Of a DNA stretch of 64,000 bases, positions 7,255-57,284 are shown piece by piece. Origin of the DNA: Thermoproteota archaeon (GTDB taxonomy: Archaea; Asgardarchaeota; Njordarchaeia; Njordarchaeales; Panguiarchaeaceae); the NCBI GenBank assembly GCA_024720975.1, contig JANJXX010000002.1, positions 112,763 to 176,762 on the forward strand. The letters are read 5' to 3'. A model generated the notes under the pieces. That model saw only the letters and a program-made list of their open reading frames with translations. It searched no databases and was not told the DNA's origin. Position numbers and translations under genes: made by a program. Position 1 is the stretch's first letter; each line of letters opens with the position of its first letter.

Positions 7255-9021
7255 TTACAACTCGAGCGGTATTTGAATGCCATACTTCTCGGCAAGCAGC
7301 TTAGATTCGTTATGTAACACTTCATAGAATCTTTTGAATGCCTCCTCATTGACACCAATGACTCTTTCTGCCTTCTCATCTAGCAAGGCCCAGTTAAACT
7401 TTAGAGAAACAAGCATTTTTGTAGACTCCAGTCTTTCTATTTCTTCCACTGGAACCACTTCGGTAAATCTTATCATAATCTCATAGTATTTCATAAATGC
7501 CTCTAAGATCCTGGCTTGTATTTCCGGTGGTGTATAACGATCAGCAACGTCATAGGCATTTTGAACGAGATAACCATCCTTAAACATCTTAGTAAACCGA
7601 AGAATAAATCTCTCTTTGTTTTGCAGAGCTTTTTCACCGACGATTTTTGAAATATCTTCGATGCGCGTGCCCTCCTCAAGAATGCCAAGGGCTTTCGCAC
7701 GATGATCAAAGAACTTTGGAGCTTTAAATTCCTTAGCAAAGTACTCTCTGAGTAAATCAACACAACTAGAGAATGAGAGCGCCCAGTTTATCGATGGAAA
7801 ATGCCTTGCAAAGGCAAGCTTTTTATCAAGTGTCCAAAGGACCCCAATGAAGCGCATAGTTGTTGCTGTCACGGGCTCTATAAAGTCACCTCCTGGAGGT
7901 GAAACCGCACCCATTATTGTTAACGAGCCCTCACGTGGATTTTTACCTAGAGTTACTACACGACCTGCGCGCTCATAAAACGCCGCTATATATTGTACAA
8001 TATAGGCTGGAAAACCTTCCTCAACAGGGACATCTCCTAATCTTCCTCCGAGTTCCCTAACTGCCTCCATCCAACGTGATGTTGAATCAGCCATCATTGC
8101 TACATTGTATCCTTGGTCCCTGAAATATTCACCAATTGTCGCTCCAAGATACACAGAGGCCTCCCTTGCAGCAACTGGCAGATTGGAGACATTGGCAATG
8201 AATACAGATCTTTCAATTAACTTGTGTCCTGTACGCGGATCATCAAGTTCGGGAAAGTGCGTTACAACATCAGCCATTTCATTTCCTCTTTCACCACAAC
8301 CGACATATATTATTATATCGGCCCAGCTCCATTTGGCAAGATTTTGCAAAGTAACAGTTTTTCCAGTACCAAATCCACCAGGTATTGCTGCTGAACCACC
8401 CATAGCAATGGGGAAGAATGTATCTATGACCCTCATTCCTGTGATTAGAGGTTTAGTAGGGGGCAATTTCTCCCTTACAGGTCTTGGAATCTTAACGGGC
8501 CACTCTTGAACCATTGTAACTTCTATTCTCTTCCCGTCACTAGTTTCTAAGGTTGCAAACGGCTCCTTGATTGTGTATTTTCCTTCTCGAATATCGATGA
8601 TTTTAGCCCTTCTAAATCCATGAGGAGCCAGTATTCTATGTTCTATCACTTTTGTCTCTGGAACTTTGCCGAGGATGTCTACAGGTTCTACCTCATCTCC
8701 CTCCTTTAGAGCAGGTATAAATGTCCACCTCTTCTTTGTATCAAGGGGCTCTAATTTTACTCCTCTTGGAACAAAAGGCCCGTATCTATGCCAGACTTCA
8801 GTAAGAGGATTTTGAAGTCCATCATAGATCTGCTTAAGAATTCCCGGTCCTAGCTTTGCTGTTAATGGTTTTCCAGTATTTTCTACTGGATCTTTTGGCT
8901 TAACACCACTTGTATCCTCATAAACTTGCACAAACACTCTATTGAGACTTATTCTAATTATCTCTCCTATAAGTTTGTTCTCTCCAATATAAACTACATC
9001 TCCAACTTTTGGATTTGGCAC
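7255..9021 (-). CDS. atpA: V/A-type ATP synthase catalytic subunit A. The true N-terminus probably extends upstream to about 9075-9081.
   Basis: Walker A GGFGTGKT, a DELS-like region and high overall A-subunit similarity. The conserved N-terminal segment GYVVRVSGPLVVAENV is encoded in frame upstream of the GTG at 9021 (see findings). Confidence 0.9.
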   Translation of the reverse strand: MPNPKVGDVVYIGENKLIGEIIRISLNRVFVQVYEDTSGVKPKDPVENTGKPLTAKLGPGILKQIYDGLQNPLTEVWHRYGPFVPRGVKLEPLDTKKRWTFIPALKEGDEVEPVDILGKVPETKVIEHRILAPHGFRRAKIIDIREGKYTIKEPFATLETSDGKRIEVTMVQEWPVKIPRPVREKLPPTKPLITGMRVIDTFFPIAMGGSAAIPGGFGTGKTVTLQNLAKWSWADIIIYVGCGERGNEMADVVTHFPELDDPRTGHKLIERSVFIANVSNLPVAAREASVYLGATIGEYFRDQGYNVAMMADSTSRWMEAVRELGGRLGDVPVEEGFPAYIVQYIAAFYERAGRVVTLGKNPREGSLTIMGAVSPPGGDFIEPVTATTMRFIGVLWTLDKKLAFARHFPSINWALSFSSCVDLLREYFAKEFKAPKFFDHRAKALGILEEGTRIEDISKIVGEKALQNKERFILRFTKMFKDGYLVQNAYDVADRYTPPEIQARILEAFMKYYEIMIRFTEVVPVEEIERLESTKMLVSLKFNWALLDEKAERVIGVNEEAFKRFYEVLHNESKLLAEKYGIQIPLEL

Positions 9022-29255: not shown

Positions 29256-29486
29256 ACCTTTAGAACGTTCCAGTGAACTAAGAAAAAATTCGACTATTAT
29301 TATCTAACAATATATAAAAGCCGCCTCAATGAGGGCCCATTAACCTTGCTTAGTATGTCAAGCATATTAAAGATTAGTGGCTTCTAACATTGCAAATGCG
29401 TCTAGGCATTTGGGGCTAAGAGGCTTGGCCTATCAACCGAAGAGAAGATACTATGCAGAACCGTTTGGTAATATTAATCTGAGAGA

Positions 29487-29569
29487 TGCGGGGGGCGGGA
29501 TTCGAACCCGCGTAGGCATTCGCCACAGGGTCCTCAACCCTGCCCGTTTGACCACTCCGGAACCCCCGC
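29487..29569 (-). tRNA. tRNA-Leu (anticodon GAG), class II with a long variable arm
   Basis: The reverse strand reads GCGGGGGTTCCGGAGTGGTCAAACGGGCAGGGTTGAGGACCCTGTGGCGAATGCCTACGCGGGTTCGAATCCCGCCCCCCGCA. It has a 7-bp acceptor stem, an anticodon loop TTGAGGA, a variable-arm hairpin GGC-GAAT-GCC, a T-arm GCGGG-TTCGAAT-CCCGC and discriminator A. No CCA is encoded. Confidence 0.85.
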
Positions 29570-29644
29570 ATGTCGTTAAAAGCTTGAGTAAGATTTATAT
29601 CAAACCCAAGCTTAAATTTATGAAAGCATTAGTTATTTAAAATA

Positions 29645-32149
29645 GTGCACTTTCATGCATGTTGCTTCGCCTTTATCGAACTTCCCTCATACCACTCTAA
29701 GGGGTCCTGCTTGGTTTCTAAAAGTTTTGAGCTCATTAAATACCTGTTAGGGGACGACATTATAACTGAAATCGAACACGGCACACACAGGAAAAAAATA
29801 GCTATGAAGCTCTTAGATAATTTACACCTTCTAAGGCTATTTCCACCTCTTAGGGATCTTCTTCCTGCTCTTGCAGCATCTCTCTTCGAGCCCCCTACTC
29901 ATAGATTAACCCTCATAGAAAAATTTATAATAGAAAGAGGGCTACTCTCACGAGTATGGATTAAGGATACAGCCACCGAAGAACTCCTTGGAAAGACCAT
30001 TAAATTAATACAAGATCTTAGTCATGATACCCTGCTGAAGATATTGGCTGTGATCATGAAGAACTACGCTACAACAAGCGAACTAGAATCGCGACTCGAT
30101 CATCTTATTGATATGACTTTTACTCTGTATGCTCGCGCAGGGAAGTTCGATCTAACCGCACCCAAACTTTTTCCATCACCAAAATTTTTATCAGAAATTA
30201 CAAAGTGCAAAGAACTTGAGGCAAATCCTGATGAAATTATTAACGAGGCTATAAGGACTACATGCAGAATCCTGCCCAAGCGTCTGCTTAGTTATTTGGA
30301 CTTTGCACTCAGAATCTTAACTGGTATAAGCTTGAGGGAGCTATCTTCAAATACTATATCTAAGTTACTCTTTAGTGAACGATTGGAAGCCATAAAGATT
30401 GTATGCATCATCGCGATGCTATACGCCGGATCTTTTTCTCCTGATAGATTAAGAGAACAAATCAGGCTAAGCCTGTTAGAGTTTCTCATTCGGGAATACA
30501 TTACATCCAACGACAACATGGTTCATGGCTGGCTAATCTCGTTACTGTTAACGGTGAGCGCATCTAGAGAAGAGCTACTTAACCTTCTAACAATATATAA
30601 GCTCGCTTCAGTCCATGGAGGAAAAGTAATGCTAAGGCTTCTCGAAACATTATTCGAAAACTCTAATGCCTACCTAATTGCTTGCATGCTAATGCTCTTA
30701 ACTGCACATCACAACGATGAACTAGAGGCCATAAGCTCACTTGCAATTTCAAGAAACAGTACTAGACTTAGGCTTATTAACAGCATACTCATTAAATCCG
30801 ATCTTAAACCTCACGGATTGACTGCACCTATCCCCTGGGAGCTATATGGTTCCATCGATAAACTCCTTAGAAGTTGTAAATCAGCGATTACATATTACAA
30901 AAATTTATACATCCAGCCACCAAGAAACTTATTAAGACTTGACAAATTTCTAGAAAGTGCGAATAACATGATAAACCTCGAGCTTGAGGAGACAACCAAC
31001 ATAGAGGAACTCAAGCAGAAACTTGAACTTACGCTAGAAACTCTAAGTAGAGGTTATGCTTTCACTAGTGAAATGATAAGAACCTTTGGAATGCTGCCAG
31101 GATTCTTCCAAACAATTAATGCTGTAAGGAACACCTGTAAAAAGCTTAGCGATAGGTGGGAATACACACTTACAAAGGACTATCTAAATTTAGTCACCAA
31201 GCATCGAGATTTGTTCACGATATCATCTCTTGATGCTGTTCAAAGGGAACAGGAACCTATAATCTCCTTAATTATTGATGGCCTCCGCTTCGATGATCTA
31301 ATTTTGCGGTTACTACCTAAGCTTAAAAAGCGCGGCTTTAGACTCATACAGGGGGGAGCGAAAATCTCTTTGCTACCATCAATAACGACGGTATCAAGAC
31401 GAGCTATAATATCTGGAGAACTTCCCCAGCTGCTAGCCTTCTCTAAAACATCCCTAAAGAGAGAAGACGAAATCCTACTGGGTAGATTCGGACAAAATAT
31501 CGAGTCTTACTACGGACCAGTGGCAACTGTTTATAGCAAATTCTCAGAAAGAGAGTATCACTCAAACAAAGTGTTCATAGTACTCAGTGAGCTCGAAAAA
31601 TCTATGCACGGATCATCAGAAAAAATCCTAGCACATTTCGTGGATGAATATCTACATAGTATCGTTGAACTGATAATGTATCTAGTAACATCGATTACAA
31701 GAAAGCATAAAAAGATACGGATTCTTATATGTTCAGATCATGGTCTAAGCGCATTTGTGAAGTTTTATGACTTATCAATTTTCCTAGAAAAGCTAACAAA
31801 CAAAAAACTCACTGATCCTTCATTGGAGCCGCTAATCAAGGAACGATTTGCCCTCATTCCATTAAGAAACCCGCAACAGATATTAGAAGCCCAGCAAATT
31901 TACAGTTCCGAGGAAGAGTTTCGATACTCGTTTTGGTTATTACCTGCAGATAGTCTTGGCTTCAAGGAAATAGAGTTTTATCTGAAAGGAACGAAGACTC
32001 TAGCGAAAACTTGTCCCTCATCAAGAGTTGTAATAATATTTCCGAAGGGCGACAGGAAACTTATAAGTGGTAAGGGCGCCATATATCACGGAGGTTTATC
32101 ACCGGATGAAACATTTAGCGCCTATGCCTTACTCTCTTATGATGCTTAA
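29645..32149 (+). CDS. PglZ-domain protein (alkaline-phosphatase superfamily C-terminal domain, large alpha-helical N-terminal region; BREX PglZ-like architecture)
   Basis: The C-terminal ~290 aa carry LIIDGLRFDD, then PSITTVSRRAIISGELP (the nucleophile-Thr region of PglZ / nucleotide-pyrophosphatase-like enzymes), then ILICSDHGLSAF (a (S/T)DHG metal ligand) and a terminal AIYHGGLSPDETFSAYAL (HGG.s..E). The N-terminal ~540 aa are Leu-rich and helical. The precise start is uncertain, as the first Met lies immediately after the tRNA. Confidence 0.55.
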   Translation: MHFHACCFAFIELPSYHSKGSCLVSKSFELIKYLLGDDIITEIEHGTHRKKIAMKLLDNLHLLRLFPPLRDLLPALAASLFEPPTHRLTLIEKFIIERGLLSRVWIKDTATEELLGKTIKLIQDLSHDTLLKILAVIMKNYATTSELESRLDHLIDMTFTLYARAGKFDLTAPKLFPSPKFLSEITKCKELEANPDEIINEAIRTTCRILPKRLLSYLDFALRILTGISLRELSSNTISKLLFSERLEAIKIVCIIAMLYAGSFSPDRLREQIRLSLLEFLIREYITSNDNMVHGWLISLLLTVSASREELLNLLTIYKLASVHGGKVMLRLLETLFENSNAYLIACMLMLLTAHHNDELEAISSLAISRNSTRLRLINSILIKSDLKPHGLTAPIPWELYGSIDKLLRSCKSAITYYKNLYIQPPRNLLRLDKFLESANNMINLELEETTNIEELKQKLELTLETLSRGYAFTSEMIRTFGMLPGFFQTINAVRNTCKKLSDRWEYTLTKDYLNLVTKHRDLFTISSLDAVQREQEPIISLIIDGLRFDDLILRLLPKLKKRGFRLIQGGAKISLLPSITTVSRRAIISGELPQLLAFSKTSLKREDEILLGRFGQNIESYYGPVATVYSKFSEREYHSNKVFIVLSELEKSMHGSSEKILAHFVDEYLHSIVELIMYLVTSITRKHKKIRILICSDHGLSAFVKFYDLSIFLEKLTNKKLTDPSLEPLIKERFALIPLRNPQQILEAQQIYSSEEEFRYSFWLLPADSLGFKEIEFYLKGTKTLAKTCPSSRVVIIFPKGDRKLISGKGAIYHGGLSPDETFSAYALLSYDA

Positions 32150-32441
32150 ATCCGCCTTTGGGTTTCTCTTTTTCAGCACCCTCCGTTTTTACAGTCTTCT
32201 TGAGTTTTGATATCAGGGAGATTATATCTTTGAGAACATAGCGCGCACTTTCGCTAAGACCACTTTCAGCTGATACAAGAAGCTTTAGAGCAGCATCTAT
32301 GACCTCTCCACCACATTTGTTACGTTTTACATAACCCTCAAGTGTATGAACACATCTATAGGCACTAATGGAGTCGCCGTCTCTTAATGCATTTATAATG
32401 TCCCCAGCAAGCCCAAGGACGAGCCTCTCCTCACATGTCAC
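32115..32441 (-). CDS. Hypothetical small protein with a strongly basic C-terminal tail; probably co-transcribed with pop5
   Basis: 108-aa ORF whose ATG overlaps the pop5 stop (ATGA). The C-terminus reads KKTVKTEGAEKEKPKGGFKHHKRVRHRR. Its 3' end overlaps the convergent PglZ-like gene by 35 nt. Confidence 0.35.
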   Translation of the reverse strand: MTCEERLVLGLAGDIINALRDGDSISAYRCVHTLEGYVKRNKCGGEVIDAALKLLVSAESGLSESARYVLKDIISLISKLKKTVKTEGAEKEKPKGGFKHHKRVRHRR

Positions 32442-32806
32442 CTAGCAACACCATTAGCAGCTTTTAAGAATTCAATAAAGAGTTTCCGTGCGTTTAGTTC
32501 TTCCTTAAGCTTTCTGTATGTACCGGAACAGTACAAATCATTAAGAATAACCGGTGTTCCCTTGATTTCTCTGAGCAAACCTAAAGCCGTTCTGAGACGC
32601 CTCAAGTCTTCACTTAAGCACTTTATTATGACCAAGCCTCGCTGTTCATCAAAGTCCTCAATATTAAAGATAACATCATAAAATGATCCAAATAGTTCGT
32701 ATATCTTACGCTTAAGCTCCGCAACGAACTCATCCTTTGTTATGGTTCTGCTAGTTATAATCTCTAAAGCTAGCCATCTGTACTTTCTCCTAATCAAAGA
32801 AAACAC
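32438..32806 (-). CDS. pop5: RNase P protein component 2 (Pop5)
   Basis: RRKYRWLALEIITS...ELFGSFYDV...GLVIIKC...LRTALGLLREIKG...CSGTYRKL matches the archaeal Pop5 pattern (RYLAFEI...GE.G......GIIRC....VSGTI). Length is 122 aa. Confidence 0.65.
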   Translation of the reverse strand: MFSLIRRKYRWLALEIITSRTITKDEFVAELKRKIYELFGSFYDVIFNIEDFDEQRGLVIIKCLSEDLRRLRTALGLLREIKGTPVILNDLYCSGTYRKLKEELNARKLFIEFLKAANGVAR

Positions 32807-32874: not shown

Positions 32875-33789
32875 TTACAGGCTAGTCATTAAACTGAGAG
32901 AAAGCGCGGCCAAGAGAGGAAAGAGTATGTTATCATTAATTGTTATGCGAGAAGCACCATTTATAAAATCAAGTATCGCCACTATTAAAGACGCCGGTAT
33001 GGCAATCCACCCCACGATGAGATAGCCAGCAAGAGAACCTGTGATGAAGTTCGCTAAGAATCCTTCCAAACTCCTATCGTTTAGTGCTATTCTTCTGCAC
33101 TTCTTACCGATTATACATGCAGCCAAGTCAGCTAAAAATGCAATGGCTATTGCTGCAGCAACTATATCATCATGAGGAAAGAATAACAACGCAACAAGAT
33201 AAACTGCCGCTGCTGAATATAAATATGAAGCCAATTGATTAAGTTCTTTCTCCCTTAACAATACACCAAAAATCGCAGGTTTATAATTGAGTCTCAAAAA
33301 CTCAATAAAAGTAAACAGCATCAATAGCGCAAGCGCAACGGCAAACAACAAAAGACACAAAAAGCCCTCATCCCGCTTTGTAATGAATATCCCAAATGTT
33401 GCATATGTACCATCAATGACAAAATTGTATATTTGACGGTAAAGATGTTTTGGAACAAATAATGCTAGGGCAATTAAATGAAAAGTCTTACGCTTAACTT
33501 CATCAATATATGTTTTATTATTTACTACTTTTATCTCGACGCGTCCTGTAGCAAATGTTATGAAAATAACTATAAGAATCACGACTGGCAATATAAAGGC
33601 AGCAGCGATAGCTAGAAAATATTCCTCTGCCGGCGTGAATGGATTCATTCGAATAATATAAAGCAACCCCCACATCATGAGACCTACCAGAAACGCTTCA
33701 CTTTGAATGCTAGCATGCTTCTTTAGGGCTATGTAGCTTATAATCGCTGTCATTAGAACTTGAGCCAGTATTAGAAACACTACTTGCAC
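32875..33789 (-). CDS. Polytopic membrane protein of the CTP-transferase / polyprenol kinase-like family (dolichol kinase or CDP-archaeol synthase-like)
   Basis: About 8 predicted TM helices. The C-terminal DLAACIIGKKCRRIALNDRSLEGFLANFITGSLAGY resembles the CdsA/DolK/CarS catalytic motif (D..A..vGk.fG....KS.EG). Confidence 0.4.
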   Translation of the reverse strand: MQVVFLILAQVLMTAIISYIALKKHASIQSEAFLVGLMMWGLLYIIRMNPFTPAEEYFLAIAAAFILPVVILIVIFITFATGRVEIKVVNNKTYIDEVKRKTFHLIALALFVPKHLYRQIYNFVIDGTYATFGIFITKRDEGFLCLLLFAVALALLMLFTFIEFLRLNYKPAIFGVLLREKELNQLASYLYSAAAVYLVALLFFPHDDIVAAAIAIAFLADLAACIIGKKCRRIALNDRSLEGFLANFITGSLAGYLIVGWIAIPASLIVAILDFINGASRITINDNILFPLLAALSLSLMTSL

Positions 33790-33909: not shown

Positions 33910-34191
33910 CTATACAATACTTTTTATAGCCTCTACGATTCGCTTTCCCCTGTCTGTTATCCTTATTGTCCATGCATTAACTCTTGGAGTTATCTTCTTT
34001 ACAGCAATTCTAACAAGACCAACTTCAGCCAGGAGTAAAACTGCCTTTCTCACTGCTTTATACTTTGAAAAGCCCAAGTGAATCAATATGTCAGTGAGCT
34101 TCATTTCCCCGTATTTGTCTAGGAGGTATAGCACTAATACTGAAAATGGCGAAGAGAGTGCTTGTAGTATAAGCTCTAGACTCAAATACAA
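33910..34191 (-). CDS. Small winged-helix transcription regulator (ArsR/TrmB-like), 93 aa
   Basis: Winged-helix-like pattern (LTDILIHLGFSKYKAVRKAVLLLAEVGLVRI...). Transcribed divergently from the ORF-free region. Confidence 0.5.
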   Translation of the reverse strand: MYLSLELILQALSSPFSVLVLYLLDKYGEMKLTDILIHLGFSKYKAVRKAVLLLAEVGLVRIAVKKITPRVNAWTIRITDRGKRIVEAIKSIV

Positions 34192-52726: not shown

Positions 52727-54604
52727 TTATTCTTCGTAAAGTAGCTTCAAATCCTTGACTCTAGCTTCGGGTGATCGAGCTTTAACTTCATAGGTAATTG
52801 TCTTTCTCTCGCCTGGTTTGAGGCTGATTTCCCATCGACAGAGCACAGCTCCCTCAGGGGTAACTTCTATCGACTTGGGCTTGGGATTGGCCGACCGCTC
52901 ATCAAACTCAAAGGTTGTTGGGACTCTATCTGTAATTACATGTATTGGGATTGAAATTTGGGACTCGTTGGTCAATGATAGCATTACTTTAAATCGACCT
53001 TCCTCGAGTGGTTCAACGTCTTTCTCGACTGTAATTAAGCGTCTAGCTAAGATTCCGGTAAGTTTAGGTGGTTCTTTGACAGATATTAATCGTGCTTTTG
53101 CACCAGGTATCATTGTTATTTCTGCAGATGATCCGAACTCATAAACTTTATCCTCTTTAGGATCGATTGAAGTTGTTGTGTATCTTATCCAGATTTTCTC
53201 GCCGGGGTTTAAGGGTTCGTCGAAGTAATAACTTATGTTCGAGATTTTAATAACTAGAGTATTTTGCTCCTCTGGTAAAGATCCCTCGGGCTCGATCTTG
53301 ATTTCTATAAGTTCTGGAGGTAATCTCGTCTCACCACGCTTCGAAATGAATACTTGAACGTTGCCTGGAGTGGGTGGTGCGATATCCTCTGGGATTATGT
53401 CGCGTACAATTATTTCATCTATTCCTGCAGATCCTAAGTTTTCAATTACAGTTTCGCTTTCAATTTTTTCCTCGGCGTGAGCTGCTATTTGATTCTCAGC
53501 AAGTCCAGCGTAGTATTCTTCATGCTTAACTGAGATTTTCCTGGAGATTTCGCCCCAAACGACCGGAATCTTGATGTCACCAATTTCTCCTCTGGCTTTG
53601 ATTGAGTATCTTACGATTGGATGTATTTCGTAGTGAAACTCTTGAACGACTTTTGGTTTCGCAGGATTTCTTATTGTTACTGGACCGAGGGTAGCAGTTT
53701 GACCAGGTTCGACTCTCACCGGGGCTAGTTTAACGATGTCGAAGATTCGGATTCCGGGCGCTCGCCGTTCAATTGATCCCTTTATTTTGTGTCCTCCCTC
53801 GGCTTCAGTTAGTACTTCTCCCTCGCGAATTTCGATAGTTGCGCCGACACTAATTGGAGCATGGGATGCATTTGTTATTACCATTGATATATCCCATATG
53901 CCGGGAGTTTCTTTCCTTTCTTCGGACAAAATTCGTTCTGTTACTTTCGGAAGTCCGGTTAATTTGCCGAATCTAAGCCCACTTAGTGTTGTTCCTTCGC
54001 AGGTCCACTCATAGGTTATTTTTCCGGTGTTAAAGGCCTCAATGTCTTCTGGGTGCATCTTTAAGTTTACGGGCAACTCAACTTTTTCTCCAGCGTTAAT
54101 TTTTGCGTCCCTCCAAACAATTGCATCTTCCATAGTGATATATTCACCGGAGGGGGGTGTGACTTCAGTAGGAGCTTTAAACTGCTTATGTAGTTCTTTC
54201 TTAACAGTCAGAAGAGCGGGAGCATCAAGCTCATTCGTAGCTCCTAGAGTGGACTGGATTTCTATAGGTTCGCACCTCAGAGCAAATGGTGATGGAATTT
54301 CAGGCGGAAACGTTAAGTTCTCTATTACAGAAAGTCCCAATTTCTCTGTAGTTATATTGTATTCAATGGTTTTTGTGTCTCCATCGCGAATGGATCCCAA
54401 GAAAAGCTCCTTCTCAATGTTAACATTTTCAGTATTTTGTAGTGTAAGTTGCAGGTCTGAGATTGCACCTCCTGTTAGATTTCTTATGATTATCTTTCCT
54501 TTGCTAGTTACTTCAGGATTTTTTAGGCCATAGCCAGCTTTTACTTCCTGTTCTTCTATGAATTCTATAATGAGTCCTTTTTCCTCTGCAGCCATCAGCA
54601 ACAC
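52727..54604 (-). CDS. Large (625 aa) acidic, beta-strand-rich protein with internal repeats; unknown function; no signal peptide
   Basis: Recurrent Ig-like/CARDB-like sequence patterns (..ITYEWTCEGT.., ..IRYTTTSIDPKE.., ..ITYEVKARSPE..). The GTG start lies directly after an in-frame TAG and the N-terminus is not hydrophobic. Confidence 0.35.
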   Translation of the reverse strand: MLLMAAEEKGLIIEFIEEQEVKAGYGLKNPEVTSKGKIIIRNLTGGAISDLQLTLQNTENVNIEKELFLGSIRDGDTKTIEYNITTEKLGLSVIENLTFPPEIPSPFALRCEPIEIQSTLGATNELDAPALLTVKKELHKQFKAPTEVTPPSGEYITMEDAIVWRDAKINAGEKVELPVNLKMHPEDIEAFNTGKITYEWTCEGTTLSGLRFGKLTGLPKVTERILSEERKETPGIWDISMVITNASHAPISVGATIEIREGEVLTEAEGGHKIKGSIERRAPGIRIFDIVKLAPVRVEPGQTATLGPVTIRNPAKPKVVQEFHYEIHPIVRYSIKARGEIGDIKIPVVWGEISRKISVKHEEYYAGLAENQIAAHAEEKIESETVIENLGSAGIDEIIVRDIIPEDIAPPTPGNVQVFISKRGETRLPPELIEIKIEPEGSLPEEQNTLVIKISNISYYFDEPLNPGEKIWIRYTTTSIDPKEDKVYEFGSSAEITMIPGAKARLISVKEPPKLTGILARRLITVEKDVEPLEEGRFKVMLSLTNESQISIPIHVITDRVPTTFEFDERSANPKPKSIEVTPEGAVLCRWEISLKPGERKTITYEVKARSPEARVKDLKLLYEE

Positions 54605-55653: not shown

Positions 55654-55874
55654 CAGAGAGGACTTTATAATATTAGCTCGCTATTTAGGATTTTATTAAG
55701 TCAAAGTCTTTTTGTTTATAATTCACTTTTAATTGAGGGTTGTCGTAATTCGGAGAATATAGACAGAATTTTTTAGATCCCAATATTCAGTAGTATATGG
55801 AGTTCACCTACGAATCAGTTTCCCGGATATTATATCTCCAAGCGATGAACTTAAAAACATCAGAGGTAATATAC

Positions 55875-57284
55875 ATGGCCGGATATGGACTAGAATACAG
55901 AACTGTAAGAAGCATTGAAGGCACTCTTATAGTGCTTGAAAAAACAAAACCTGTCGGTTATAATGAGCTAGTTGAAGTAGTCCTTCCGGATGGTACTGAG
56001 TACTATGGTTCAGTAATAGATACTTCAATGGACTATGTACTAATTCAAGTATTTGGTAGGAAAGAAGGTCTTGAACGTGGTCTGAAAGTTAGATTGACTG
56101 GCGAGCCCATATCGATTCCGCTATCCGAAGATGTGCTAGGTCGGGTTCTAACTGGATCCTTTAAGCCGCGAGACCATCTTCCCCCAATAATCGGAGACGA
56201 AAAAAGAGAGATCTTTTACTCAGTGATAAACCCAGCTGCTCGTGCTCCTCCAGAGGAATTTATACAAACCGGCATCTCAATAATAGACGCCTGTCTAGCA
56301 TTGGTACGTGGGCAAAAATTACCGATATTTACATTATCTGGACTACCACATAATATGCTTCTAGCACAGATAGCAAGGCAAGCTACGATTTTGAAGAAAG
56401 GTGCTGAGGCCCGAGAGGATTTTGCAGTGGTTTTCTGTGCTATGGGATTGCGGCATGAGGAATATGAGTTCTTCCGCCAAACTTTTGAAAAAACCGGCGC
56501 GCTGCATCGTTCTGTGATGATTCTCAATCTGGCGGATGAGCCTGAGATAGAGCGTATTATAGCACCAAGAGTTGCGCTAACCGTTGCTGAATACCTGGCT
56601 TTCGACCTCGATTATCACGTTCTTGTAATACTTGGAGATATGCTAAGTTATGCAGAAATTTTGAGGGTTTTATCCACCGCCCGTAGGGAGATACCGGCTA
56701 GAAAAGGATACCCTGGATATCTGTACACAGATTTGGCTACGATTTACGAAAGATGTGGAAAAATAAAGGGCATGAAAGGGAGTGTAACGTTGATGCCATA
56801 CCTAACAATGCCGGGGGGCGATATAACACATCCCGTAGTCGATTTAAGTGGTTATATCACAGAGGGTCAAATAATTCTATCGAATGAGCTTCACATGAGA
56901 GGAATTTATCCGCCAGTGGACTTATTAAACTCGCTTTCTAGGTTGGCTAAGGATGGTATCGGTAAGGGTAAAACGAGAGAGGATCATAAATATATTGCGG
57001 AGCAGCTATATGCATCATATGCCGCCGGGATTGAAGCCAGGGAATTAGCTAAGATAATCGGTGAGCGTGCTTTAAGCGAAAGAGAACGAAAATATCTAGA
57101 ATTCACAAACATGTTTGAGCGAAAATTTATTAGTCAAGGTTATTTAGAGAACCGCAGTATCGAGCAGACACTAGAACTAGCTTGGGACTTGCTAGCCACT
57201 CTCCCGGAGGGAGAGTTAACCAGAATACCACCACGTATCATACATGAGTATCATCCCAAATACAGATCAAAAAAAGTCACTTAG
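55875..57284 (+). CDS. atpB: V/A-type ATP synthase subunit B
   Basis: Non-catalytic B-subunit P-loop-like region ([14 protein letters not shown]) and conserved C-terminal blocks. The start is set at [11 protein letters not shown] (55875), since the track ORF from 55797 adds 26 unlikely residues. Confidence 0.9.

Follow-up and report, generated by a model that had tools for sequence, protein, structure and literature searches.

A stand-alone PglZ-family protein with intact active-site residues and a PorX-like module, encoded at a conserved chromosomal position in Njordarchaeia

What is understood so far of PglZ domains comes from phage defence by BREX/Pgl systems and from response regulators of the PorX type. 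The gene of a PglZ-domain protein lying next to a tRNA gene in the genome of an Asgard archaeon raises the question of whether it belongs to either of these settings, and whether it reached its place as defence cargo. The stretch of DNA analyzed here, referred to as the window, comprises 64 kb of contig JANJXX010000002.1, and its relevant features are collected in Table 1.

The ORF at 29645–32149 (+), of 834 aa, was present in the translation of the window as listed, and the four motifs quoted for it in an earlier sequence-only reading were all found there (LIIDGLRFDD, LLPSITTVSRR, CSDHG and YHGGLSPDETF). Judging from the alignment of orthologues, the true start of the gene is most likely the TTG codon at 29711, giving a protein of 812 aa and not 834. 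The N-termini of the orthologues all start MV(S/P)... at the position aligned with this codon; in locus L001 the aligned codon is an ATG, and the protein P0002 was called as 812 aa. A conserved Shine-Dalgarno-like sequence, AAGGGGT, was observed at 29699–29705, 5 nt upstream of the TTG. The segment 29645–29710 would most likely be promoter and 5' UTR, not coding sequence, and transcription would be expected to begin near 29667. A conserved TATA-like box, TTTAAAA, was located at 29636–29642, ending 3 nt before GTG 29645, and is contained in an A/T-rich element (29635–29644) with this GTG directly on its 3' side. The spacer between the tRNA and the PglZ gene also holds an imperfect palindrome (29580–29613), which was not interpreted as an operator, since L020 shows no more than a loose counterpart of it.

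Table 1. Coordinates of the PglZ-family gene, its predicted active-site elements and its neighbours in the window.
Feature	Position	Strand	Remarks
tRNA-Leu(GAG)	29485–29570	-	ARAGORN; Rfam RF00005, 56.9 bits
22-codon in-frame extension upstream of TTG	29645–29710	+	no counterpart in any orthologue
PglZ-family CDS, probable true extent	29711–32149	+	812 aa, TTG start, stop codon included
N-terminal all-α domain, residues 1–380	29711–30850	+	motifs PPLxDLLP, GLLxRVW and IPWEL invariant
Helical bundle/linker, ~residues 381–505, long helices 431–459 and 463–497	30851–31225	+	homologous to PorX helical bundle
PglZ catalytic domain, residues 506–812	31226–32146	+	
Asp523 (IIDGLRFDD), predicted metal-2 ligand = PorX Asp239	31277–31279	+	invariant in 13 family sequences; PorX alignment
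Thr559 (LLPSIT), predicted nucleophile = PorX Thr272; Arg563 = PorX Arg276	31385–31399	+	invariant; aligned to PorX LPTATQYAR
SELEKSMHG; Glu629 and His633, predicted metal-1 ligands = PorX Asp361 and His365	31586–31612	+	
Asp676-His677 (SDHG) = PorX Asp415-His416	31736–31741	+	invariant
His793-Gly-Gly...Glu800 (HGGLSPDE) = PorX His500, Gly501, Gly502, Glu507	32087–32110	+	invariant; aligned to PorX HGGISLEE
Small basic protein, 108 aa	32115–32441	-	helical body, two invariant Cys, Lys/Arg tail
Pop5, RNase P protein subunit (Rpp14/Pop5 family)	32438–32806	-	PF01900, E 1.4e-15
Conserved polytopic membrane protein, 304 aa	32875–33789	-	14 loci, 46–72% identity
Small winged-helix protein, 93 aa, weakly DUF4364/PadR-like	33910–34191	-	Pfam DUF4364 sub-threshold

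As had been proposed from the motifs, the protein is a genuine member of the PglZ/alkaline-phosphatase superfamily. Its active site is intact. The search against Pfam PglZ (PF08665) suggested at that time gave a significant though marginal match (E 3.3e-6, residues 542–700 of the 834-aa ORF), its 27.6 bits lying 2.6 bits over the gathering threshold of 25; across the family members the scores ranged from 17.8 to 38 bits, some of them falling under it. In an AF2 model of the protein (pLDDT 87.5, pTM 0.80) the catalytic domain adopts the PglZ/NPP-like α/β fold, residues 633–637 are the sole segment with a pLDDT below 50, and neither a signal peptide nor a transmembrane segment is evident. The residues D523, T559, E629, H633, D676, H677 and H793, together with the Arg, were invariant in 13 family sequences sharing 22–65% identity, and within the SELEKSMHG motif S626, L628, K630 and G634 were invariant as well. 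In PorX the metal-coordinating positions and the Thr are D239, T272, D361, H365, D415, H416 and H500, Thr272 being the nucleophile and Arg276 the phosphate-binding residue (PMC9757075). Of these, D239, T272 and H500 were aligned explicitly with the window protein and the other positions were matched by motif spacing, including the pairing of Glu629/His633 with Asp361/His365, which does not come from a printed alignment. One ligand is substituted, since the metal-1 Asp of PorX (Asp361) corresponds to Glu629 here.

PorX, the T9SS response regulator of Bacteroidota (PDB 7pv7, 8p6f and 8ted), is the closest solved structure, and the window protein resembles it more than BREX PglZ. When the family profile was compared with the PDB, PorX was the sole match (E 7e-8), and the matching region included the helical bundle. 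Both proteins consist of a three-helix-bundle linker followed by a C-terminal PglZ domain whose end comes shortly after the HGG...E motif, 19 residues past HGG in the window protein. The positions of the metal ligands, the Thr nucleophile and the phosphate-binding Arg are all kept, with the one change of Asp to Glu. Moreover, the α5a region of PorX, which covers the segment equivalent to SELEKSMHG, switches between helix and loop (PMC9757075), and in the model obtained here low confidence is confined to the corresponding flexible segment at the metal-1 helix. By contrast, the receiver domain of PorX is replaced by an unrelated all-α domain of ~380 residues: no Pfam Response_reg match was obtained, and the N-terminus is all-α in the model. 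No relative of this domain is known among solved structures, and it evolves faster than any other segment of the neighbourhood. The two proteins also differ in host, the archaeal one lacking a T9SS or PorY context, and in sequence, with ~12–14% identity and 24.8 bits for NCBIfam T9SS_RR_PorX against a cut-off of 300. The ENPP family and phosphonoacetate hydrolase, also of the alkaline-phosphatase superfamily, lack both the helical bundle and the N-terminal α-domain; Pfam Phosphodiest was not matched by the window protein, in which the PglZ-specific motifs are present.

The BREX types are each defined by a BrxC/PglY ATPase together with PglZ. The absence of PglX, BrxC, BrxL and a receiver domain beside this gene, pointed out in the sequence-only reading, was borne out for the window as well as for each of the 41 related loci examined. 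No BREX components were detected in the 64 kb: PolD DP2 is the only ORF above 1000 aa, and the ten further large ORFs that were checked (482–888 aa) are core archaeal genes. Likewise, brxC/pglY, pglX, brxL, brxA and brxB were not found within 5–10 kb in the 41 related loci, nor were PAPS-reductase, BrxHI or PglW near the family members in the window and these loci; the genes annotated there were POR, Pop5, EndA, ECF transporter, TatD, TFIIB, Nre and similar. This absence refers to 64 kb of the present genome and to the 41 loci. The BREX PglZ architecture attributed to the protein did not hold either. BREX PglZ/BrxZ (types 1–6; PDB 9zn5 and 9nv3) similarly carries its catalytic domain after a helical linker, and a metal-dependent phosphodiesterase or nuclease chemistry is expected here as well. 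Compared with the model, however, its N-terminal α/β/α (inactive Swi2/Snf2-like) domain and HTH-like units are missing, as is the C-terminal β-sandwich of type 1 or wHTH of type 2 (PMC12839542). Since type-3 BREX PglZ also has no C-terminal domain (PMC12839542), this last absence is not exclusive by itself. The scores against the NCBIfam profiles for BREX PglZ types 1–4 were all below their cut-offs (26.3/250, 21.8/400, 13.7/140 and 12.7/200 bits), and the PADLOC PglZ matches were weak, the best reaching 20.7 bits. A further difference from BREX is the position of the gene, fixed in the core genome and not in a defence island. The nearest PglZ proteins outside the family (P0023–P0036) were also considered as BREX or PorX members, and none of them reached an NCBIfam cut-off.

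The proximity of the tRNA gene had been taken as typical of horizontally acquired defence cargo. The adjacency itself is real, with a gap to GTG 29645 of 74 nt and not 76 nt, and is also seen in L001–L005 and L020; in L006 a distance of 4.7 kb separates the tRNA from the gene. Nevertheless, the origin as cargo is not borne out by the orientation, composition, position and divergence of the gene. The tRNA and the PglZ gene are divergent, so that the 5' (promoter) end of the tRNA faces the gene; the GC content of the gene is 0.39 against ~0.40 for the window; and no direct repeat of the tRNA 3' end or other tRNA-derived att repeat was found in 28–36 kb. The lack of an integrase and of attachment repeats noted earlier was confirmed, the flanks being the POR operon and pop5. 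Neither insertion at a tRNA 3' end, nor presence/absence polymorphism among the related loci, nor atypical composition was observed. The syntenic position of the gene was unchanged in all of the related genome fragments that were recovered. The gene order was identical to the window in L020 (65% identity) and L001–L005 (49%), the triad of PglZ, small basic protein and Pop5 was kept in L006, L009 and L018 (31–35%, or 33–35%, depending on the alignment) but with the whole unit inverted, and it was kept in the orientation of the window in L019. The identity gradients of PglZ across the loci paralleled those of PolD, POR, EndA and Pop5. The cargo hypothesis had been set against a universally conserved position combined with a known housekeeping role; because the position is conserved in every related fragment, at 65, 49 and 31–35% identity, with a divergence that tracks the neighbours, the first part of this alternative applies, whereas no housekeeping role is known. 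The PglZ-family gene is a vertically inherited chromosomal gene of conserved position, and not an island at tRNA-Leu.

The family has so far been found only in Njordarchaeia, its members being labelled at NCBI as Candidatus Njordarchaeales, Njordarchaeia or Njordarchaeota. It is small, since 1.84 billion cluster representatives yielded 33 matches, of which ~12 are full length, and is known only from metagenome-derived contigs and MAGs, where bin CAZVPA01 seems mixed. A word-indexed protein search with the alignment of 13 sequences returned nothing past the first three matches, and no members were detected in the viral contigs scanned. At least three paralogue groups (A, B and C) were distinguished, alongside the protein P0015.

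The identification of pop5 as a neighbour was confirmed by its Pfam match (Table 1). The small basic protein, described earlier as co-oriented with the PglZ gene, is in fact encoded convergently: the 3' ends of the two genes overlap by 35 nt, and the gene overlaps pop5 by 4 nt in an operon-like manner. Its homologues (31–66% identity) were found in the same convergent position in all of the group-A loci (17/17), with Pop5 as the third gene of the block. No match to the small basic protein was obtained in Pfam, NCBIfam, PADLOC or the PDB, the best PDB profile being a designed protein (E 0.099). Since overlapping gene ends make such a block hard to break, the constant association of PglZ with the other two genes may reflect this physical overlap and not a shared function. 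The block is flanked, on one or other of its sides, by the 304-aa membrane protein in all 14 group-A loci that are long enough; this protein had no match in Pfam. The neighbour most widely common to the family across the paralogue groups is the winged-helix protein (93–114 aa), encoded at 5 kb or less from the family member in 23 of 39 loci. In the group of the window it lies 1.5–3.7 kb from the PglZ gene and is not adjacent to it, and the 93-aa protein is 45% identical (E 1e-18) to the protein that, in L010/L011, is encoded in direct overlap with the 3' end of the gene for the 974-aa paralogue. The small protein beside the 974-aa paralogues was also compared with the small basic protein of the window, and the identity was 16–20% with a poor alignment; it is the winged-helix homologue instead. 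The proposal of the small basic protein as a partner thus finds some support: it is always adjacent within its own orthologue group, but the neighbour kept across paralogues is the 93-aa winged-helix protein. If the enzyme has a dedicated regulator or partner, this protein is the leading candidate.

The locus is likely to encode a two-metal PglZ-type phosphodiesterase that is catalytically competent and belongs to a small, vertically inherited family of Njordarchaeia, in which a PorX-type module is joined to a new, lineage-specific all-α domain. In the mechanism proposed, Thr559 would attack a phosphodiester held between two metal ions, with Asp523, Asp676 and His677 forming metal site 2 and Glu629, His633 and His793 forming metal site 1. 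As in PorX, the activity would probably be gated by dimerisation or by the ordering of the 629–637 helix, and instead of phosphorylation the N-terminal α-domain may give the input, for example by way of a partner that is a protein or a nucleic acid. The bond cleaved would be a phosphodiester in an oligonucleotide or a nucleic acid, and the likeliest substrates would be linear or cyclic oligonucleotides, or nucleic acid. This substrate class is extrapolated from PorX, which breaks down linear oligoribonucleotides, pApA and pGpG among them (PMC9757075), and from the DNA nicking of BREX PglZ. A more specific version can be put forward only tentatively, and we consider it rather doubtful: a private, paralogously expanded PorX-like family in which the all-α domain would serve as a sensor in place of the receiver and form, with the winged-helix protein, a chromosomal two-component-like module, neither BREX nor a classical response regulator, that would control or degrade signalling oligonucleotides (e.g. 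cyclic oligoadenylates) or nick nucleic acid once a protein or nucleic-acid cue is recognised, group A being also coupled, physically and perhaps in function, to Pop5 and the small basic protein.

Other explanations were weighed against the reading as a PorX-like phosphodiesterase. The protein might be a minimal stand-alone antiviral effector, with an N-terminal domain that senses the invader and a PglZ domain that nicks or degrades foreign nucleic acid, its partners being encoded elsewhere or the winged-helix protein acting as the DNA-binding subunit. The metal-dependent nuclease nature and fast-evolving flanking domains of BREX PglZ (PMC12205998, PMC12839542), the rapid evolution of the N-terminal domain here, the diversification into paralogue groups, and the toxin-antitoxin genes (L012/13) or AbiEi-like HTH (L016) beside some paralogues are consistent with this. 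The position among core information-processing genes is nonetheless strictly kept at 31–65% identity, no presence/absence variation was seen, and the window holds no defence genes nearby. Together with the weak PADLOC matches, the absence of viral or MGE copies among those searched, and N-terminal motifs that are invariant across all groups, unlike a pure arms-race surface, this makes an antiviral role unlikely.

A role in RNA processing or turnover tied to RNase P and the small basic protein, such as pre-tRNA trimming or end-healing or the degradation of short RNA, appears more improbable still. It would agree with the unbroken block of the group-A loci, which survives inversion as a unit, with the oligoribonucleotide cleavage by PorX (PMC9757075), and with the presence of tRNA-Leu, EndA (the tRNA-splicing endonuclease), an RNase E/G-like protein and FttA in the wider neighbourhood. 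The PglZ gene is convergent to the pop5 operon, however, and so is not co-transcribed with pop5, the gene-end overlaps suffice to explain the block, and groups B, C and P0015 adjoin no RNA-processing gene. Furthermore, we know of no PglZ-domain protein that acts as an RNase P or tRNA-maturation factor. Least probable is a hydrolase of a non-nucleotide phosphodiester or phosphonate (a lipid head group or phosphonoacetate), perhaps linked to the membrane protein. ENPP6/7 act on lipid head groups, and the constant flanking of the block by the 304-aa protein would fit such a substrate, but the association with this protein does not extend to the remaining paralogue groups and the enzyme itself shows no export or membrane signal in the model. 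PorX is clearly the best match in structure and sequence, helical bundle included, and the counterpart of its nucleotide-phosphate-binding Arg276 is invariant.

The locus represents a third setting for PglZ, stand-alone, with the active site intact and with an N-terminal domain that has no precedent. For genome scans it is a caution that a PglZ match beside a tRNA gene is not evidence of a defence island. Given the very narrow taxonomic range and the lack of a link to eukaryote-like biology, the wider impact is moderate. The variant has a fixed place in the core genome of an Asgard lineage, where several paralogue groups have arisen from it. Candidates for biochemical work on PglZ chemistry outside BREX are the enzyme itself, the winged-helix protein of 93 aa and the small basic protein linked to Pop5.

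The 834-aa open reading frame (ORF) from which the sequence-only reading started is present, and its four motifs were found in the translation as LIIDGLRFDD, LLPSITTVSRR, CSDHG and YHGGLSPDETF. The start of the gene was placed further downstream. The orthologues begin with MV(S/P)..., at the position of residue 23 in the 834-aa ORF, and the closest of them is annotated as 812 aa. When the upstream regions were aligned, the TTG at 29711 matched the ATG of L001 (a related locus on another contig), and two conserved elements were observed before it, an AAGGGGT and, ~70 nt upstream of the TTG, a TTTAAAA box; the GTG at 29645 lies directly 3' of this box. Because of the orthologue N-termini, the aligned ATG, the AAGGGGT and the placement of TTTAAAA, the sequence most likely encodes an 812-aa protein starting at 29711, with 140 nt between the gene and the tRNA. 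This form is used for the residue numbers that follow (the earlier numbering is +22). The small basic protein, previously described as co-oriented with PglZ, is a 108-aa ORF that converges on the long ORF from the opposite strand, the two 3' ends sharing 35 nt. An imperfect 15-nt inverted repeat (AAGCTTGAGTAAGAT / ATCAAACCCAAGCTT) in the divergent tRNA-Leu/PglZ promoter region is a possible operator; a loosely similar palindrome (TTCAAGC...GCTTGAA) occurs at the aligned place in L020, the locus of the 65% orthologue.

Features of the window and of related loci (window coordinates unless a locus is named)
Feature	Position	Strand	Remark
tRNA-Leu(GAG)	29485-29570	-	Rfam 56.9 bits
Inverted repeat	29580-29613		
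TTTAAAA box	29636-29642		
834-aa ORF	29645-32149	+	
AAGGGGT	29699-29705		
PglZ gene, most likely extent	29711-32149	+	
Small basic protein	32115-32441	-	
Pop5	32438-32806	-	PF01900, E 1.4e-15
304-aa membrane protein	32875-33789	-	
Winged-helix protein (93 aa)	33910-34191	-	homologue of the L010 copy
Winged-helix protein, L010	12906-13241	-	
Winged-helix protein, L008	3478-3783	-	
Region with the 937-aa PglZ paralogue, L016	229-3788		
ATP-synt_ab ORF	7255-9021	-	
ATP-synt_ab ORF	55797-57284	+	
625-aa ORF	52727-54604	-	

The Pfam search gave a match to PglZ (PF08665) with an E-value of 3.3e-6; since its 27.6 bits compare with a gathering score of 25, the sequence by itself makes the assignment significant but marginal. 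Scores were far under membership level for the PADLOC PglZ models, at ≤20.7 bits, and for the BREX-PglZ and PorX models of NCBIfam, where 13-26 bits were reached and 140-400 are required. The description of the gene as an orphan PglZ was borne out: no other BREX component was found in the window, and no BREX genes were detected in any of the 41 loci collected by exact-protein look-ups and scans of genome and metagenome contigs. The only ORF of the window over 1000 aa is PolD DP2, and the ten further large ORFs checked (482-888 aa) were Lhr helicase, an OB-fold (RPA-like) protein, a Topo VI-B-like protein, FttA/aCPSF1, ABCE1, two A-type ATPase subunits, CTP synthase, an RNase E/G-like protein and a transglutaminase-like protein.

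Additionally, two of these ORFs match Pfam ATP-synt_ab (the ATP-synthase α/β nucleotide-binding family), the one on the reverse strand with an additional ATP-synt_ab_Xtn match, and appear to be a pair of A/V-type ATPase subunits, which may be A and B. Genes of such subunits are usually adjacent in one operon; these lie ~47 kb apart on opposite strands. The 625-aa ORF, which may encode a divergent Topo VI-B-like protein, has a sub-threshold Top6b_C match (27.9 vs 28.6 bits) and no other.

The AlphaFold2 model, built from a 13-sequence family alignment, was confident (pLDDT 87.5, pTM 0.80). Residues 1-505 are wholly α-helical, including long helices at 431-459 and 463-497, and residues 517-812 form an α/β domain. 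The best 17 Foldseek matches of the whole model were all PorX (E ~1e-11), followed by BREX PglZ at 1.4e-7, and a PDB search with the family profile returned PorX chains only (E 7e-8), in which profile positions 391-582 align with PorX 98-290, from the helical bundle into the PglZ domain; the C-terminal HGGxSxEE motif was also aligned to PorX. BREX PglZ consists of an N-terminal α/β/α domain (inactive Swi2/Snf2-like), HTH-like units, a helical linker, a phosphatase core and a C-terminal β-sandwich, the C-terminal domain being a wHTH in type 2 and absent in type 3 (PMC12839542). By contrast, β-strands are missing from the modelled window protein up to residue 517, and it lacks a C-terminal domain, so the BREX-like architecture proposed earlier was not upheld. 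As in PorX, the chain ends 19 residues past HGG; unlike PorX, a new α-domain occupies the place of the receiver.

The metal-coordinating residues of PorX are D239, T272, D361, H365, D415, H416 and H500, and its phosphate-contacting residues are R276 and N358 (PMC9757075). Their counterparts are, in the same order, D523, T559, E629, H633, D676, H677 and H793, and R563 and S626, with D239, T272, R276 and H500 aligned explicitly and the others placed by motif spacing; all nine are invariant among family sequences of 22-65% identity. The sole segment with pLDDT <50 (633-637) lies within the SELEKSMHG helix, the counterpart of PorX α5a, a helix/loop switch that gates metal-1 binding and dimerisation (PMC9757075). 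No segment of the neighbourhood evolves faster than the N-terminal domain (60/40/25% identity), although its motifs PPLxDLLP, GLLxRVW and IPWEL are invariant in all paralogue groups.

Only three relatives (100, 65 and 49% identity) were found when 5.8 billion proteins were searched by a word index. With the relatives' profile, HMMER was then run exhaustively over 1.84 billion cluster representatives and gave 33 proteins at E ≤ 1e-3, about 12 of them full length (778-975 aa); in three more proteins of ~1000 aa the similarity is confined to the catalytic domain. Where given, the taxon labels were Candidatus Njordarchaeales, Njordarchaeia, Njordarchaeum guaymaensis and one 'Korarchaeota', and the source labels were 'hypothetical protein' or 'PglZ domain-containing protein', a name that homologues thus already bear in public annotation. 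The 49% orthologue sits in a Candidatus Njordarchaeota MAG, and these labels place the window on a chromosome of Njordarchaeia (Asgard). No description of the family's architecture, lineage restriction, paralogy or conserved neighbours was found in the literature searched. Pairwise identities separated group A (778-816 aa at 31-65% identity, made up of the window protein, the only family copy in the window, and six clusters), group B (792-975 aa, extended further at the N-terminus), the P0015-type proteins as a group of their own, and group C (~1000 aa). The extension of the group-B proteins P0009, P0011 and P0013 (L008, L010) is of ~170 residues, absent from the window protein and without a Pfam match. 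One MAG, CAZVPA01 (L007 and L018), contains two different group-A PglZ/small basic protein/Pop5 blocks and therefore two pop5 genes; this bin probably mixes two related populations.

The proposal of acquired cargo beside a tRNA was contradicted by several lines of evidence. The window's gene order (PolD DP2, POR operon, tRNA-Leu(GAG), PglZ, small basic protein, Pop5, ~300-aa membrane protein, 93-aa wHTH, ~155-aa wHTH, EndA and OTCase) was also observed in L020, which carries the 65% orthologue, and in L001-L005 and L021-L024, which carry the 49% orthologue. L019 (~34% identity) retains the PglZ/convergent small basic protein/Pop5 triad in the window's orientation, and in L006, L009 and L018 (33-35% or 31-35%, according to the alignment used) the triad is inverted as a unit. 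Its flanks in L006 and L018 are the membrane protein on one side and the POR operon on the other, and the tRNA of L006 is 4.7 kb distant. Identity to the window drops in parallel in L020, L001 and L006-type loci for the PglZ catalytic domain (76, 62 and 47-49%), Pop5 (72, 65 and 36-49%), EndA (80, 72 and 59-62%) and POR-α (87, 84 and 78-80%). The GC content of the gene is 0.39, against ~0.40 for the window. No tRNA-derived repeat was found in 28-36 kb and no integrase nearby, as had been noted, and no family members were found in a scan of viral contigs. Integrases that target tRNAs insert at the 3' end, and the PglZ gene faces the 5' end of tRNA-Leu. Comparison of the locus thus found the gene conserved at the same position in relatives; a known housekeeping role, mentioned alongside in the sequence-only reading, was not found.

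For the 39 loci, including the window, in which the family gene was placed, every ORF lying ≤5 kb from it entered a clustering. The neighbour shared most widely was a small protein with a winged helix (93-114 aa), in 23 of the 39, although locus counts exceed independent observations because many loci are near-identical copies of one locus. A sub-threshold DUF4364 match was observed for this protein. Its gene lies 1.5-3.7 kb from PglZ in group A, and in group B (L008/L026, L010/L011/L035, L027, L028, L029 and L031) it converges directly on the 3' end of PglZ, overlapping it by ~20 nt in L010/L011; in L032 it is just upstream of PglZ. The window and L010 copies are 45% identical (E 1e-18), whereas the corresponding PglZ enzymes are just 24-29% identical.

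The small basic protein and Pop5 are found with group A (17 loci) and with no other group. The former is a genuine conserved gene (31-66% identity in 17/17 group-A loci), overlaps pop5 by 4 nt in an operon-like manner and encodes a helical body, a pair of invariant Cys and a tail rich in Lys/Arg; no match was found in Pfam, NCBIfam, PADLOC or PDB, and it could be a lineage-specific RNase P-associated or RNA-binding protein. The polytopic membrane protein, conserved and without a Pfam match, always flanks the block in group-A loci; its stretch DLAAxxxGKK...SLEGF may resemble dolichol/phytol kinase or CTP-transferase membrane families. Other paralogues adjoin unrelated genes: an ECF transporter, TatD, TFIIB plus a toxin-antitoxin pair, DUF2099 and Nre. 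For the 937-aa paralogue (P0012 type; L016, L030), only 14 nt separate the end of a TatD-family nuclease gene from PglZ on the same strand, operon-like, and downstream lies a helix-turn-helix gene of HTH_17/MerR type that has a weak AbiEi_4 match.

PorX cleaves pApA, pGpG and cA3-cA6 (PMC9757075), and DNA nicking by BREX PglZ has been described (PMC12205998, PMC12839542). By analogy with these activities, the protein would hydrolyse phosphodiester bonds of oligonucleotides or nucleic acid, and its N-terminal domain may gate hydrolysis. A lipid or phosphonate hydrolase is less likely, and so is a stand-alone defence effector. An RNA-processing factor, to which the company of Pop5 might point in group A, is likewise a less likely reading; the linkage to Pop5 and the small basic protein may be functional, or it may be a mere overlap of gene ends that makes the block unbreakable.

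These results point to a PglZ phosphodiesterase of the PorX type, predicted to be catalytically competent, in which the receiver has been replaced by a new α-domain. The foremost candidate for its regulator or partner is the winged-helix protein. The PglZ gene, on the evidence of the loci compared, has a fixed place in the Njordarchaeia core genome.
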